The position numbers were made by a program, and so were the translations under genes. This document shows positions 12,261-45,917 of a stretch of 64,000 bases of DNA, one piece after another. The DNA comes from Ignavibacteriota bacterium. Its GTDB lineage: Bacteria; Bacteroidota; Ignavibacteria; Palsa-1295. How positions within the stretch are numbered: the first letter of the stretch is position 1; each line of letters begins with the position of its first letter. Where the stretch lies: the NCBI GenBank assembly GCA_963787835.1, contig CAWBEI010000004.1, forward strand, positions 288,001 to 352,000, given 5' to 3'. Below the pieces are notes generated by a model, which saw only the letters and a list, made by a program, of their open reading frames with translations, had not been told where the DNA came from and did no database searches.

Positions 12261-12947
12261 TTACGTCAGCCGCCGCAGTCCCAGCCGGTGCATGGTTCCC
12301 TGCTTGGCGTCGTGGCGGCGGAAGAGAAAGGTGAGTACCACGCCGGTAAAAAATCCCCCGATGTGGGCCATGTACGCGATGCCGCCTCCGGTAGTGCCGG
12401 CATTTTCATACTGCGACGTCCAGCCGGAGAGGAGTTGTGTAACGATCCACAATCCCAGCACGAACTCCGCCTGCATATTGACGATGAATGGAAAAAAGAT
12501 GAGCACGCGAACCCGGTTGTGCGGGAACAGAATCAGATATGCTGCCAGCACACCCGCAATAGCTCCGGAAGCGCCGAGGTTCGGTATGTGGGAATCCGGC
12601 ATGGCATACGTTTGCGCCAGCATCGCAGCAATGCCGCATGTGAAATAAAAGATGATGTATTTAAATTTCCCGAGATTATCCTCGACATTATCGCCAAAGA
12701 CGTATAGATACAGCATGTTCCCAAAGATATGCGCCACGCCGCCATGCAGGAACATCGAGGTGATGACCGTATAAAATGGCTGACGTCCCGCGATGAAATC
12801 CGCCGGGATCAGTGAATACTGATGGACGAAATCATTCCCGCCGGACAGTTCCAGCAGATACACCAGAACATTGATGGCGATGAGAGCCGTCGTTACGACG
12901 GGATAGGAAACTCGCTGGCTGTTGTCGTCACCAAGAGGGAGCAGCAT
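12261..12947 (-). CDS. Rhomboid family intramembrane serine protease
   Basis: TSMFLHGGVAHIFGNM, FGDNVED, GASGAIAG, AYMAHIGGF. Confidence 0.95.
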   Translation of the reverse strand: MLLPLGDDNSQRVSYPVVTTALIAINVLVYLLELSGGNDFVHQYSLIPADFIAGRQPFYTVITSMFLHGGVAHIFGNMLYLYVFGDNVEDNLGKFKYIIFYFTCGIAAMLAQTYAMPDSHIPNLGASGAIAGVLAAYLILFPHNRVRVLIFFPFIVNMQAEFVLGLWIVTQLLSGWTSQYENAGTTGGGIAYMAHIGGFFTGVVLTFLFRRHDAKQGTMHRLGLRRLT

Positions 12948-12996
12948 AAACTACGATTTACAGGATTTTGCGGATGTTCAGGATGGATTTGGGGGA

Positions 12997-13911
12997 TTAG
13001 TGAGCAGTGGAATCGATGGAGATGAGCGTGAGGGTGCGTTTATCAAACGAATTATCGAGATTTCTGCCAGCGATACGGCGACCGGTTGAAGTTCGTGAAA
13101 TTATGAGTCCGTCTGAGGAACGAATATCCTGCAACTCGTCAGACTGACCCTTGGAGATAAGTTCTCCATCACCGACTTGATAATTCGTTATTTCCGTTTC
13201 AAGTTTGTATTGTCCCGCCTTGCGGTCAGCGGCATCTTGATGAATAGAATAATCGTTGTGGTATGAATTGTAATTTTGGCCAGCAGGTTTCTGGTTCGGA
13301 GAGCTTGCAGTGTGGGTTAAGTAAAAAGTATGAGGATGGGAGATCTTAGTTGAACTATCCTGCCATTTCACTCCTGCTCGAACCTCTGATTTGATTGGTC
13401 TCGTGCTAAGTAATTGCGACATCCCAGAAATGATTGCTACGCTGTCCGGTGGTGCTTTAGCCAAATTTTTGGGATCCTTCCACCCTATTTGGTTCAAACT
13501 GTCCTGTGGAGAGCGGTGCAATATCTCGCCGCTCAGGTACCTTCCATACCGATCCACTTTTACTCGATATAGGGGAATTTGCAAAGTAAGCCCACCCTGA
13601 GTTACTCCTTCGCCACCATCTCCGCCTTTAAAATCGTGCGTTTCTTCATTTTGGATGACAAGCGTTGCGTTGTCAAGTGAATCAACGTTCTCGACCGTAA
13701 TATGAATATCCTCTATCCGATCCCAATTGTGTTCCATTAGACCGGGCGGATTATCCGGATTGCGGAATTCATCGATCTTCTTGTAATGCAAAACTTCCCC
13801 CGCCTTAAAATGATACGCAAGATCAACCGGTGCCGGTGAAGTGGCCTGCCCGAACGCCACCGAAGCAGGGAATCCCAGTACCACGATTATCAGGATGTTG
13901 CGGATGTTCAT
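12997..13911 (-). CDS. Secreted tandem-array paralog, type A, intact (DUF6263-like start)
   Basis: Signal peptide, then TSPAPVDLAYHFKAG...; ends KRTLTLISIDSTAH. Confidence 0.85.
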   Translation of the reverse strand: MNIRNILIIVVLGFPASVAFGQATSPAPVDLAYHFKAGEVLHYKKIDEFRNPDNPPGLMEHNWDRIEDIHITVENVDSLDNATLVIQNEETHDFKGGDGGEGVTQGGLTLQIPLYRVKVDRYGRYLSGEILHRSPQDSLNQIGWKDPKNLAKAPPDSVAIISGMSQLLSTRPIKSEVRAGVKWQDSSTKISHPHTFYLTHTASSPNQKPAGQNYNSYHNDYSIHQDAADRKAGQYKLETEITNYQVGDGELISKGQSDELQDIRSSDGLIISRTSTGRRIAGRNLDNSFDKRTLTLISIDSTAH

Positions 13912-13926
13912 GATGGATTTTTTGGA

Positions 13927-14848
13927 TTAATGAGCGGTGGAATCGATGGAGATGAGCGTGAGGGTGCGTTTCAAATATAACTTACCAACATCACCCATTC
14001 CTCCAATTGGCCGATCCATTTGAGTACGGGCAGGTCGTGAGTCCGTCAGATGAGCGAATGTGTTCATCTTCATCGTTAAGTCCTTTAGAAAGAAGCATCC
14101 CATCTGACACTTGGTAGTGGGTACATTGTGTCGCCAGATCAAATGTTCCTGCATTTCGATCTTTCCCATTTTGCTTAACGACATAGTCATAACGGTCTGC
14201 ATTGTAGCTTGGTTTGGGAGCGGGTTGATCCTCTGCGGGGCTTGCGGAATGATCCAACGCGTAGTGTATTGTATGGGAATGTTGACTGGAACTATCTATC
14301 CATTTCGCACCTATCTGCACTCCATTTCTTGCGGGCCTCGGACAAAGCACTTCTTGAAAATCGAGTTTGATCCTTGAGCTGTCTGGCATTGCCCATCCAT
14401 TATAGTTTGGATCTTTCATCTGTTCGTGAAAGAGACTATCCTAAGGCGAGCGTCGCAACATCTCACCTCTAAGATATTTTCCAAAACGATTAATCGTTAC
14501 GCGATAAAGAGGAATGTCCTGAGCAAGTCCGCCCTGGGTTACACCAGTAGGATCATCTCCACCCTTGAAATCGTACGATTCCGTGTTCTGTATAACAAGA
14601 GTTGCGTCGCCGATAGAATCAACTTTTTCAACAGAAATGTCAACATTCTCCTTTACGTCAAAATTTTCTTCCTGATAACCTCCTGGATTATCCGGGTTCC
14701 GCATCTCATCCAGGCGCTGATAATGCAAAACTTCCCCCGCCTTAAAATGATATGCAAGATCAACCGGCGCCGGTGAAGTGGACTGCCCGAACGCCAGTGA
14801 GGCGGGGAATACCAGAACCACGATTATCAGGATGATGCGGATTTTCAT
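13927..14848 (-). pseudogene. Tandem-array paralog, type B, disrupted
   Basis: In-frame TAG at 14443-14441 where the paralogs have Gln (S-P/S-Q-D-S), plus one extra base near 14035; same N- and C-terminal motifs as the other copies. Confidence 0.8.
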
Positions 14849-14863
14849 GATGGATTTTTTGGA

Positions 14864-15793
14864 TTAATGAGCGGTGGAATCAATGGAGATCAGCGTAAGG
14901 GTGCGTTTATCAGAGATATTTTCACGATCTTTGTTGATTTTAATTCCGGGCACCGCTTTTTCCAATTGAGTACGCTTTAAGGTAATTCCATCGCTTGACC
15001 GAATTTCCTGATCTTCATCTGTAGTAAACTGCGATAATAATTGCCCTTGCGAAACTTGATAGTTCATCGTTTTCGTAACAAAGTGGTATTTGCCAGCAGT
15101 GCGATCTTCCGCATCCTGAGCGGTCTTATAATCATAATGATGAGAAAAGTAACTTGGAAGTGGTGGAGGCTCCTCTTTCGCAGGTGCGGCCGTGTGATTG
15201 AAATAAACGACATGGTTATGTGAAATCTGGGCCACACTATCCTGCCAGGTTGTACCAATTTGAACTCCTGTTCGAGCAGGTCTCGTCGAAAAGGCCTCGC
15301 CTATAAAAAGATTTATTATGGAACTATCAGTACGCGGTGTAATATTCCATCGTGGGTCTTTCATGTGCTCATGTTCTAAGCTATCTTGCGATGAGTAACG
15401 CAATATTTTCCCGCTAAGATATTTTCCATACCGATCTACGGTGACTCGGTAGAGAGGAATATCTTGTGCGATAATACCCACAGCTTGTTGGAATCCGTTA
15501 TCACCATTTTTGAAATCGTAAGATTCCTCATTCTGGATAACGAGGGTTGCATCCCCAACTGAATCTACTTTTTCAACCGTGATATGAATGTCATCTTTTG
15601 TATCATAATTCCCTTCCATGTAGCCGGGTGGATTATCCGGATTCCGACATTCATCCAGCCGTTGATAATGCAACACGGTTCCCGCCTTGAAATGATACGC
15701 AAGGTCAACCGGCGCCGGTGAAGTGGACTGCCCGAACGCAAGTGAAGCAGGGAACACCAGAACCACGATTATCAGGATGTTGCGGATTTTCAT
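14864..15793 (-). CDS. Secreted tandem-array paralog, type B, intact
   Basis: MKIRNILIIVVLVFPASLAFGQSTSPAPVDLAYHFKAG...KRTLTLISIDSTAH. Confidence 0.85.
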   Translation of the reverse strand: MKIRNILIIVVLVFPASLAFGQSTSPAPVDLAYHFKAGTVLHYQRLDECRNPDNPPGYMEGNYDTKDDIHITVEKVDSVGDATLVIQNEESYDFKNGDNGFQQAVGIIAQDIPLYRVTVDRYGKYLSGKILRYSSQDSLEHEHMKDPRWNITPRTDSSIINLFIGEAFSTRPARTGVQIGTTWQDSVAQISHNHVVYFNHTAAPAKEEPPPLPSYFSHHYDYKTAQDAEDRTAGKYHFVTKTMNYQVSQGQLLSQFTTDEDQEIRSSDGITLKRTQLEKAVPGIKINKDRENISDKRTLTLISIDSTAH

Positions 15794-15808
15794 GATGGAT
15801 TTCTGGGA

Positions 15809-16726
15809 TTAATTAGCAGTGGAATCGATGGAGATGAGCGTGAGGGTGCGTTTCAAGAAGGAATTATCGAGATTTCTGCCAGCGATACGGCGACCGGTTG
15901 AAGTTCGTGAAATTATGAGTCCGTCTGAAGATCGAACGTCTTGCACTTCGTCATCTGTGCCTTTCGAAATAAGTTCTCCTTCAACGACTTGATAATTTGT
16001 TGTTTCCGTTTCAAGTTTGTATTGTCCCGCCTTGCGGTCAGCTGCATCTTGCTCGATAGTGTAATCGTTGTGATATGCTTTATAATTCGGGCCGGCAGGT
16101 TTCTGGTTCGGTGAGCTCGCAGTGTGGTTAAAATAAAATGTAGTTGGATGGGTTATCTTGGTTGAACTATCCTGCCATTTCACTCCTGCACGAACCTCTC
16201 CTTTGGTTGGTCTCGTGCTAAGTAATTGCGTCATTCAGGAGATGATCGATACGCTGTCCGGTGGCGCCTTGGCCAAATTTTTGGGATCCTTATACCCTAT
16301 TTGCCACATGCTGTCCTGTGGAGAGCGGTGCAATATCTCGCCGCTCAGGTACTTTCCATATTTATCCACTTTTACTCGATACAGCGGAATTTCCAAAGTA
16401 AGCCCTCCCTGAGTTACTCCCTCGCCACCATCTCCGCCTTTAAAATCGTGCGTTTCTTCATTATGGATGACAAGCGTTGCATTGTCGAGTGAATCGACGT
16501 TCTCGACGGTAATATGAATATCTTCTATCCGATCCCAATTGTGTTCCATAAGACCGGGCGAATTATCCGGATTGCGGAATTCATCGATCTTCTTGTAATG
16601 CAGCACGGTTCCCGCCTTGAAATGATACGCAAGGTCAACCGGCGCCGGTGAAGTATTCTGTGCAAACACAGTGGAAAATGAAGCAAGCACGATCACACAA
16701 CAAATGCCGATTATTTTCATAGCCAC
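15809..16726 (-). pseudogene. Tandem-array paralog, type A, single nonsense codon
   Basis: In-frame TGA at 16237-16235 where the 12997..13911 copy has Gly (IISGM); otherwise very similar to that copy, but with a different signal peptide. Confidence 0.8.
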
Positions 16727-16766
16727 AAATTCTTAATTCTCAATTCTTAATTGATAATTGAAACAG

Positions 16767-16841
16767 TGGGCATTACAGGGTTCGAACCTGTGACCTTTCG
16801 CGTGTGAGGCGAATGCTCTGGACCAGCTGAGCTAAATGCCC
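16767..16841 (-). tRNA. tRNA-Val(CAC)
   Basis: Reverse complement GGGCATTTAGCTCAGCTGGTCCAGAGCATTCGCCTCACACGCGAAAGGTCACAGGTTCGAACCCTGTAATGCCCA; cloverleaf, anticodon CAC, CCA not encoded. Confidence 0.97.
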
Positions 16842-16953
16842 GGACGTGCCGTATAGCTCGGCTCCTAACTTCTATGCGTTTGGGGTGGTTCCGAACCGAG
16901 CAACGAACTGTAATAGAAATAATTGGTTTATAGAGTCTATAATGATAGGGAAC

Positions 16954-17220
16954 ATGCTTGCTATCGTAGAAGCACATCCACTGCAGGATTTCAAGCTTGC
17001 TCTTACCTTCAATAATGGCAAGAGCGGGACGGTGGATCTTGCCAAAATTTCCCGAACCGGCGTGTTCGAAGCCTGGAACGACCCATCCTTTTTTCGGAAA
17101 GTGTTCGTTCATCCCGAATTCAGAACCGTCACCTGGCCCGGCGATCTGGATCTCGATCCTTATGTGCTCTATGCCCAAATGACAGGAAGTTCCATTGAGG
17201 AAGTGTTGGCGAGTGTCTAA
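16954..17220 (+). CDS. DUF2442 family putative antitoxin
   Basis: LALTFNNGKSGTVDL...GVFEAWNDPSFFRKV...TVTWPGDLDLDPYVLY; start 16942 or 16954. Confidence 0.88.
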   Translation: MLAIVEAHPLQDFKLALTFNNGKSGTVDLAKISRTGVFEAWNDPSFFRKVFVHPEFRTVTWPGDLDLDPYVLYAQMTGSSIEEVLASV

Positions 17221-17222
17221 CG

Positions 17223-17483
17223 ATGCCTGAAATTTCTCGATTCTTTGGCATCGTCGTTCTCCTAAATTACAACGATCATACTCCTCCGCATTTTCATGCG
17301 CTGTCCGGCGATGAAGAAATTTTGGTTGGCATTAACGATCTTCAAATAATTCGTGGCAGCATGTCCGCGCGCAATACACGTCTTGTGATGAAGTGGGCTG
17401 CGCTCCATAAGGAGGAATTAGTGCATGCCTGGAATGAGGCACAAGCGCATCATGTGCCCGGTCGAATTGAGCCGTTGCATTGA
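17223..17483 (+). CDS. DUF4160 family putative toxin
   Basis: MPEISRFFGIVV..YNDHTPPHFHA...WAALHKEEL..AW...IEPL. Confidence 0.92.
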   Translation: MPEISRFFGIVVLLNYNDHTPPHFHALSGDEEILVGINDLQIIRGSMSARNTRLVMKWAALHKEELVHAWNEAQAHHVPGRIEPLH

Positions 17484-18701: not shown

Positions 18702-18732
18702 TTGCTTCTGGGATTTTTCTGTTGTATCTTTG
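18702..18732 (+). promoter_or_regulatory. Bacteroidota-type housekeeping promoter (-33 TTG / -7 TAnnTTTG)
   Basis: TTG at 18702, 20-nt spacer, TATCTTTG at 18725-18732, upstream of the giant fibre gene. Confidence 0.55.
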
Positions 18733-18889
18733 TAGAAGTTTAGTGGATTCAGGTAAGCCCGATGGATCATTTTGTCTATTTGTCTATGCCCGAATCCGGC
18801 ATTTAAGTTTAGTTAGCGGAGGGGTTTTATTAGTTTGCTTCTATCAGAATCCCCTTGGTGTACTTTTTAACGCTTCACATTCTATTACT

Positions 18890-25303
<6,414 letters not shown>

Positions 25304-45549: not shown

Positions 45550-45917
45550 GTTAGGAGAAATTCCGAATTTGGTGGCGTCTCGGAAAAGTGTCGTATATTA
45601 GGTGGTGAGATGATGGGCACCCTGTATCAATTAAGAAGTAAGAATTAGACCACGATTTACAGGATTCTCGGGATTAGGGAAGGATGGGGGAGTTCATTGA
45701 AAATTGATTTTGGCAATAGGTTTCGTTATGAACGAGTTCTCTGTGAAGGGACTTTTATGAATACTCGTTGGAACAAATGGCGAAATTGGCCCAGAAACGA
45801 GGGAGGAGCAAGGAATATCGGGAACTCAGCAAGAAAAAGAAATGGCACCTATTTCTTGGTGACAGCATGTTTGCCCTTTCTGAACCAATCTCACCCTCCG
45901 CTTTGTAAGCATAAGAG

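Follow-up and report, generated by a model that had tools for sequence, protein, structure and literature searches.

The window analysed here, a stretch of 64,000 nucleotides, corresponds to positions 288001-352000 of contig C4 of the source genome (G000; 3.57 Mb in 7 contigs). It harbors four tandem paralogues, designated g1 to g4, on the minus strand between a tRNA-Val gene and a gene for a rhomboid protease (Table 1). Each of them ends with ...TLISIDSTA(H/N) and the stop codon, which is followed by a common stretch of about 54 nt. As assembled, g2 and g4 are the sole intact copies. The gene g1 is interrupted by a TGA at 16235-16237, where the homologue P0010 has a Trp at the matching place, and this TGA is confirmed with 0 differences by a contig from a soil run (X1). 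The assembled g3 contains a TAG at 14441-14443, whose position reads CAG in one low-depth soil-run contig (X2), and, around 14028-14033, what appears to be a +1 frameshift. Given these two broken copies, the array may be decaying.

The site behind tRNA-Val holds an array-type gene also in G002, G008, G010 and at the metagenome locus L009, and the rhomboid gene is present in 11 of the 14 other genomes of the genus; the gap between the two flanking genes is a hot spot for repeats and insertions. A protein neighbouring the array carries a type IX secretion sorting domain. Beside the tRNA, two short plus-strand ORFs of 124 and 86 aa (16846-17483) may form a toxin-antitoxin-like pair of the DUF2442/DUF4160 type, and an ORF of 2193 aa at 18722-25303 combines long collagen-like G-X-Y repeats with adhesin-like head repeats.

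Table 1. Array genes, flanking genes and copies of the repeat element (positions are those of the window)
Feature	Position	Strand	Remarks
tRNA-Val(CAC)	16766..16841	-	directly upstream of the array
Array gene 1 (g1)	15809..16720	-	ordinary (ancestral-type) signal peptide MKIIGICCVIVLASFSTVFA, then Q; TGA-broken; body closest to g4
Element at g1/g2 junction	15758..15811	-	g1 stop, 15-nt spacer, g2 codons 1-12 (MKIRNILIIVVL); 40.6 bits
g2 signal peptide remainder and +1 Gln	15728..15757	-	VFPASLAFG, then Q; would stem from the old c-region
Array gene 2 (g2)	14864..15793	-	intact, 309 aa
Element at g2/g3 junction	14813..14866	-	codes MKIRIILIIVVL; 40.2 bits; exact match to the ATG pattern
Array gene 3 (g3)	13927..14848	-	TAG and apparent +1 frameshift as assembled
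Element at g3/g4 junction	13876..13929	-	codes MNIRNILIIVVL; 32.3 bits; contains 13883-13920
Array gene 4 (g4)	12997..13911	-	intact, 304 aa
Post-array non-coding element	12948..12999	-	spans the g4 stop up to the last base ahead of the rhomboid ATG; 39.5 bits
Rhomboid protease gene	12261..12947	-	PF01694; after the array
Distant non-coding family copy	45648..45677	-	embedded in heptamer repeats

The initial annotation of this DNA had reported that the non-coding sequence at 12953-12990 matches the gene-start sequence at 13883-13920, and 34 of the 38 positions are indeed identical. On the plus strand the match goes on, with the offset staying at 930, across the final ~15 codons of the gene upstream. 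After g1, g2 and g3 the ATG of the next gene sits 15 nt behind the stop, inside the 54-nt stretch, and after g4 the stretch has CTG in that place, a TAA seven codons further on and its end one base ahead of the rhomboid ATG. The two deviating codons of the non-coding copy are located as had been described, with CTG at 12979-12981 and the early TAA at 12958-12960, and its minus strand reads TAA TCC CCC AAA TCC ATC CTG AAC ATC CGC AAA ATC CTG TAA ATC GTA GTT. The proposed start M-N/K-IRNILIIVV of the three genes holds overall, but g3 begins with MKIRIILIIVV and thus has I instead of N at residue 5; likewise, the match itself stands, but its repeat-like part reaches codon 12 (CTG) and hence slightly farther than first delimited. 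Over the 54 nt from the upstream stop to codon 12, the junctions agree with non-coding copies at 41-45 positions and with ordinary starts at 20-25 at best. The g1/g2 stretch agrees with the post-array copy at 43/54 positions, with the copy behind the gene of G002 at 45/54 and with ordinary starts at no more than 24/54. Past codon 12 the likeness to the element stops.

The g1/g2 and g3/g4 junctions are found, with 0 differences, in contigs from public soil runs (5 records from 4 runs of one study, possibly including the source sample), and the g3/g4 junction is contained in contigs of X2, X3 and X4. An assembly artefact is accordingly unlikely, two of the three junctions being covered without differences (the g2/g3 junction and the g3 frameshift lie outside these contigs).

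A genome-wide search for the repeat, as the initial annotation had proposed, retrieved a dispersed family with a 9-nt period. The family profile, which was seeded on 14 non-array copies that are themselves counted among the matches, found 143 matches at E<=1, 85 of them at E<0.01, and 0 in the reversed genome. This model built without array sequences scores the three gene starts with 32-41 bits and the post-array copy with 39.5 bits. The start of g1 is absent from its matches, and the signal peptide of this first gene is unrelated, as had been claimed. When the 38-mer was used as query, 21 further matches of at least 25/38 were obtained outside the array (best 32, 32, 31, 29), compared with 0-5 matches for each of 10 shuffled 38-mers (best 27), so that the likeness is not due to chance. 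The units of the family read (A)ATCC-NNNN with the 9-nt period and end in GGTT or GGTC, often in GGTTC(A/T)G. Translated in the signal frame, the element yields I-L-x-I-R-K-I-L-x-I-V-V-L, with a basic front and an aliphatic rear. The copy noticed around 45649 is real (C4:333677-333648, E 3.6e-4), but it is a member of a subfamily that is more distant and interspersed with heptamer repeats. Heptamer repeats resembling TTAAGAA are also located just before g1 (window 16728-16760), and heptamer runs precede the rhomboid gene in several relatives (L019, L022, L026), while 9-mer elements occupy the pre-rhomboid place in G000, G007 and G013.

The letters found at the decisive sites of non-coding copies document the ordinary state of the family. 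CATCCTG occurs in 15 of 140 non-start copies and CATCATG in none. In the closest subfamily, whose 37 non-start copies were tallied and vary in spacing, ATG is absent from the start site (0/37), and the codon-8 site reads TAA in 20, TGA in 6, AAA in 5, ATA in 1 and other triplets in 5 copies, so that a stop is present in 26 of 37. CTG and the stop are thus the normal letters of the family, and the post-array copy is not a decayed one. Since AAA and ATA exist in non-coding copies, and AAA in the copy of G002, only the exchange of CTG for ATG need be new. Among the 301 genomes of the class, the ATG-form pattern has exact matches only at the three array starts, so that the strict pattern retrieved no repeat-derived start in the 300 other genomes. 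With one mismatch allowed, 15 matches in five other members of the genus were found (14 with CTG, 1 with TTG), none of which opens a frame of more than 70 codons. A scan of 185,579 species genomes, a set that may omit close relatives, returned one exact match (L017), which opens just 29 codons. Within G000, 76 frames leaving elements were judged by eye and gave no clear case of a second repeat-derived gene start; most of these frames have their own ATG further on. Judged from the sequences, codons 1-12 of g2, g3 and g4 almost certainly derive from this dispersed non-coding repeat.

The genomic surroundings of the element indicate what kind of unit it may belong to. G000 contains 25 pairs of opposite-strand elements within 600 nt, 23 of which point outward, and many inverted pairs are empty. 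One pair brackets a GxxExxY (TIGR04256) gene at C2:1180041-1180622 (L030/L071). In a survey across the genus, for which 25 of 37 listed GxxExxY loci were fetched (L054-L078), 16 of the 25 are flanked by the element, 12 of these on both sides, and its orientation is always inverted; the count in control windows was 0 of 23. Inverted terminal repeats around a gene or an empty core, as in MITEs and insertion sequences, are thus found for the element. This arrangement leads us to infer a small mobile unit that has the element as its end, with the post-array copy being a lone end, and the GxxExxY-carrying unit is possibly an undescribed mobile element. Literature linking GxxExY with such a repeat was not found in a search that extended to few subscription journals, and the papers retrieved for GxxExxY deal, by their titles, with different topics. 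Two further inverted pairs enclose other contents: a small acetyltransferase-like ORF, read by eye, at C2:202184-202747 (L031) and a GC-rich palindromic repeat at C2:1320984-1321266 (L032). In both pairs, it looks as if the element ends marked insertion hot spots.

Array-type genes occur in 3 of the 14 other genomes of the genus, and none was detected in 20 other genomes of the family that were searched. The initial annotation had named the N-termini of single-copy orthologues as a check, and the single-copy genes of G002 and G010 as well as the first-slot gene of L009 all start with ordinary signal peptides instead of MxIRNILII. G002 has one copy with an ordinary signal and an element that begins with its stop codon, is of the CTG form and scores 45.4 bits; its position relative to the gene is the same as that of the post-array copy. 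The single copy of G010 has an ordinary signal, with neither element nor repeat-type start, and G008 has two tandem copies, each with its own ordinary signal and without a repeat-type start. Near-identical non-coding copies of the element exist in G006 and G014, where the array-type gene was not found. In G002 (L035, C1:1746000-1763000), about 11 kb separate the element from the rhomboid gene. This interval comprises a short beta-propeller/T9SS-like ORF, oxidoreductase-like genes and a transporter, and the ORF right after the element shares its first 8 nt with the rhomboid gene.

Outside the window, 6 of 49 database homologues (five of the 49 lack the N-terminus) possess a repeat-type start. 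P0002 and P0027 start with MxIRNILIIAVL..FP, and P0006, P0007, P0008 and P0010 with MKIRIIL[K/Q]IVVLVCA; the K at position 8 and the A at position 10 are variants that are found also in non-coding copies. Their mature domains are 55-71% identical to g2 (P0027 is a fragment, g4-like and frameshifted). The annotated extension SRSSPSIQPLI of P0008 equals, at 10 of 11 residues, an off-frame reading of the 3' end of a paralogue in the window, thus indicating that P0008 also follows an upstream copy. None of the 24 most distant homologues has a repeat-type start. A search for the DNA of repeat-type homologues at related loci yielded one metagenome locus (L009, with the first-slot gene cut) and no genome contig, and for the three repeat-type proteins encoded on a contig of 129,366 bp no partner with an ordinary signal was found among proteins from contigs of this length, which speaks against a coupling of signal type and array position.

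The signal peptides of P0007 and P0010 end in ASSSLAFAQ, identical to that of the ordinary-type P0009. It is therefore likely that the new signal peptide is a chimera, in which the join falls inside the old signal peptide and the cleavage region is ancestral. The initial annotation had assumed a tandem duplication that fused the repeat to the mature-protein coding region; the duplication is supported, but the joining probably took place inside the old signal peptide and not at the mature region. Codons 13-22 of g2, g3 and g4 resemble ordinary starts weakly (12-14/30 ungapped, better with one 6-nt gap). The codons for V-F-P agree with rhomboid codons 2-4 at 7/9 positions in g2 (rough p 0.007, five offsets) and at 5/9 in g3 and g4, and the duplicated unit may have extended a few codons into the rhomboid gene. 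As a direct repeat at the join, ATCGTGGTT of the element and ATCGTGCTT of the g1 signal are a candidate with 8/9 identity, but crossing-over at this point would have given a signal shorter than the observed one; a second candidate join, after the first codons of the rhomboid gene, shows a weak match.

A tree was calculated for 20 mature domains, without P0013, P0017 and the more remote homologues, and recovered three sister pairs: g1 with its ordinary signal and g4 of the repeat type, P0005 and P0008, and P0009 and P0007 (90/93, not starred). The signal labels are no more clustered on this tree than after shuffling, and the repeat types need 3 and 4 changes. A mosaic structure is seen in g1, whose first ~45 residues are P0015-like and whose remainder is g4-like (88% DNA identity over 908 nt). 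Its identity to P0015 amounts to 17 of 21 residues in the signal and 23 of the 24 that follow; past residue 45, g1 agrees with P0015 at 9-15 and with g4 at 22-29 positions per 30. This distribution fits recombination that swapped bodies between slots while the junctions persisted, such that the signal type follows the array position. Body swapping would have two consequences, namely that the mature-domain tree cannot count the origins of the repeat-type start and that G002 might be a collapsed array instead of the pre-duplication state.

The repeat-type N-termini have the typical make-up of signal peptides. Their net charge over residues 1-8 is +1 to +3, providing a positive n-region, and the best Kyte-Doolittle mean over 8 residues amounts to 3.2-4.25 (3.64-4.25 in g2, g3 and g4) versus 2.5-3.5 for the ordinary type, in agreement with an h-region. 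The small residues at -3/-1 are given by A-F-G before Q in g2, g3 and g4, where the site was derived from the alignment, and the Gln at +1 is invariant in 16/16 aligned homologues. A Q-rule, i.e. Gln at +1 after cleavage by signal peptidase I, has been described for Bacteroidetes in a study whose available part does not cover Kapabacteria (PMC5837995). When the signal-coding regions of g2, g3 and g4 were compared, 10 changes were counted, six of which are synonymous (p ~0.03); this excess is mostly located in codons 13-21, and of the changes in the repeat-derived codons 2-12 one is synonymous and two are replacements. The spacer at the junction is rich in A and folds weakly, and RNA structure at the starts exhibits nothing beyond shuffles (z 0.25 to 1.48). 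Among 982 roughly called starts of the genome, Shine-Dalgarno-like words are slightly enriched (12% vs 7.5%) and A/T dominates; the anti-SD of the 16S rRNA is present. The N-terminus of g2, g3 and g4 is thus predicted, and very probably so, to be a working export signal, most of which is supplied by the repeat. Given that g1, the sole copy with the old signal, is broken, the intact array products depend on the new start.

The body of about 285 residues belongs to an old family (36 representatives at E<=0.001). A de novo gene was also considered and dismissed: just 12 codons are of non-genic origin, and the body comes from this family. The array protein lacks a Pfam match at E<=1 and an NCBIfam family. 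Its structural model (pLDDT 74) is a curved beta-sheet, whose closest folds are the N-terminal beta-barrels of lipovitellin and ApoB, both large lipid transfer proteins of animals, and of MTP (Z 13.5-10.4; lipovitellin 1lsh with Z 13.5, rmsd 4.0 and 206 aligned residues; ApoB 12.1), followed by bacterial LolA-like proteins (Z 8-9). In the Atlas cluster, 17% are assigned to DUF6263 at score 0.90, a low recognition, and most of the look-alike proteins stem from Bacteroidota. From the modelled fold we would guess at a role in lipid binding after export.

The following course of events may be reconstructed. The ancestral state would have been a single-copy gene with an ordinary signal and with the element at the same nucleotide after its stop, as seen in the single-copy relative. 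The unit then duplicated would have begun within the codons of the signal peptide and reached as far as the element's 3' end. The second copy would thereby have lost its own start, its n-region and most of its h-region and would have kept the cleavage site. The exchange of CTG for ATG, 15 nt past the stop and behind an A/T-rich, weakly folded spacer, would have permitted translation in an organism that seems to use Shine-Dalgarno sequences seldom. Of the point changes postulated by the initial annotation, CTG to ATG is retained, but the removal of the stop is not necessarily a later adaptive change, as AAA and ATA are found in non-coding copies. Later unequal crossing-over would have copied the junction, giving rise to copies 3 and 4, and mature domains would have been swapped between slots. 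The products are predicted to be exported by Sec and cleaved by signal peptidase I at AFG/Q. A duplication junction is quite probably the route by which the element was joined, and the whole account, i.e. a post-stop repeat that a short-junction tandem duplication attached to the rear part of the old signal, started by CTG to ATG and serving as a predicted export signal, is in our view likely.

An alternative with the same repeat origin assumes that the whole gene was duplicated and that a later deletion or element insertion fused the element to the remainder of the signal. The tandem pair of G008, in which both genes have their own ordinary signal, lends some credit to this order of events: a two-gene array without the repeat-type start means that duplication at this locus does not need the element. 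The element family is moreover mobile-like and often located beside gene starts (19 of 140 non-start copies are within 40 nt of the ATG of a long ORF, an uncontrolled count). Separate insertions are, however, hard to reconcile with the fact that the element begins at the stop codon, at the same nucleotide, in all four junctions and in G002; a duplication followed by a deletion would leave a junction like that of a single step. On the whole, we regard this scenario as unlikely. It is even less probable that the repeat origin is real and the N-terminus non-working, with copies 2 to 4 weakly translated or exported, or not at all, and the array a decaying by-product. The stops and the frameshift in g1 and g3 as assembled, the frameshifted P0027 and the lack of measurable constraint on the repeat-derived codons alone are compatible with such a by-product, but the ATG and the stop-free state are common to the three copies and six database proteins, the synonymous excess extends over the whole signal region and the frames of 304-330 aa are intact.

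The post-array sequence at 12953-12990 might also be the decayed start of a fifth gene, its likeness to other repeats then being coincidental. AAC at codon 2 is common to the post-array copy and g4, and some exchange between the two is possible, but CTG and TAA of the post-array copy are the usual states of the family, and near-identical non-coding copies exist in G006 and G014, in which no such gene was found. Furthermore, the sequence is not followed by a remnant of a mature domain, the rhomboid ATG being reached one base later, and the signals of outgroup homologues are unrelated. The family states and the restriction of the ATG form to three starts rule out a decayed fifth gene, and we give this reading practically no credence.

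Considering the preferred duplication-junction origin, partial precedents are known. In Yersinia pestis YPO1552, enterobacterial RU-2 repeat DNA is found inside a predicted signal peptide (Delihas 2007, PMC2759123). RU-2 is, according to the available part of that study, a MITE-like unit of 168 bp that was fused at single loci, whereas the array element has about 50 bp and a 9-nt period, is located 3' of the gene and likely reached the 5' end by tandem duplication. In contrast to RU-2, its start required one substitution and was copied to several paralogues, and the non-coding ancestral copy is still present at the array end. A parallel in mechanism is sigH of Staphylococcus aureus, where short-junction tandem duplications give chimeric genes new N-termini (PMC3486894). 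As in sigH, DNA lying downstream became attached to the front of the duplicated copy, the 5' end of the original was kept and a new translation start was provided: g1 retains its ordinary 5' end, and g2, g3 and g4 begin with a homologue of the post-array element. The sigH N-termini, as far as the accessible text describes them, come from coding nusG and rplK, arise at direct repeats of 7-8 bp and are quickly lost, whereas the array source is a non-coding repeat, the product is fixed and diverged, and the junction lacks a clean direct repeat.

In Enterobacterales, signal peptides can be gained either through point changes or through the acquisition of an entire N-terminal block; this survey found no insertion sequences near such N-termini and considers prepended random residues unlikely to form a signal (PMC5952966). 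In contrast to that survey, the source DNA is identified in the array, and a signal was replaced and not gained for the first time. Small bacterial repeats fused to ORF 5' ends, some of them in frame, have been reviewed (PMC3184786), and intergenic TAACTGA heptamer repeats adjoin start codons (PMC4679880); judged from the portions available, the array element differs from both in unit length and sequence. The terms "nonamer" and "9-mer" do not appear in the available text of the heptamer study, and the array element, unlike these heptamers, forms inverted ends around GxxExxY genes. In the literature searched, which included few subscription journals, no bacterial signal peptide was encountered that had arisen from non-coding DNA where a duplication was joined.

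A more far-reaching reading connects both parts of our analysis. The element would be the terminal repeat of an undescribed GxxExxY mobile unit, whose period leaves it one base away from a ready-made export signal; a duplication junction would have captured it, perhaps on two independent occasions (MKIRNILIIVVLVFP and MKIRIILKIVVLVCA types), and it now serves as a fixed start-plus-signal slot for shuffled lipid-binding-like domains. We advance it as a tentative proposal that is rather doubtful at present. Apart from this proposal, the association of the repeat family with GxxExxY genes offers a lead of its own, pointing to a mobile element that is possibly undescribed.

The evolution of signal peptides is rapid, and to our knowledge their source can almost never be traced. 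In the present case it is possible to read the sequence of the non-coding ancestor, the state with a single copy, the derived copies and the decisive base change. The general importance is limited, as the effect is local and concerns a gene family without known function. The array also indicates that a tandem duplication which cuts off the 5' end of a gene can be rescued by the DNA behind that gene.
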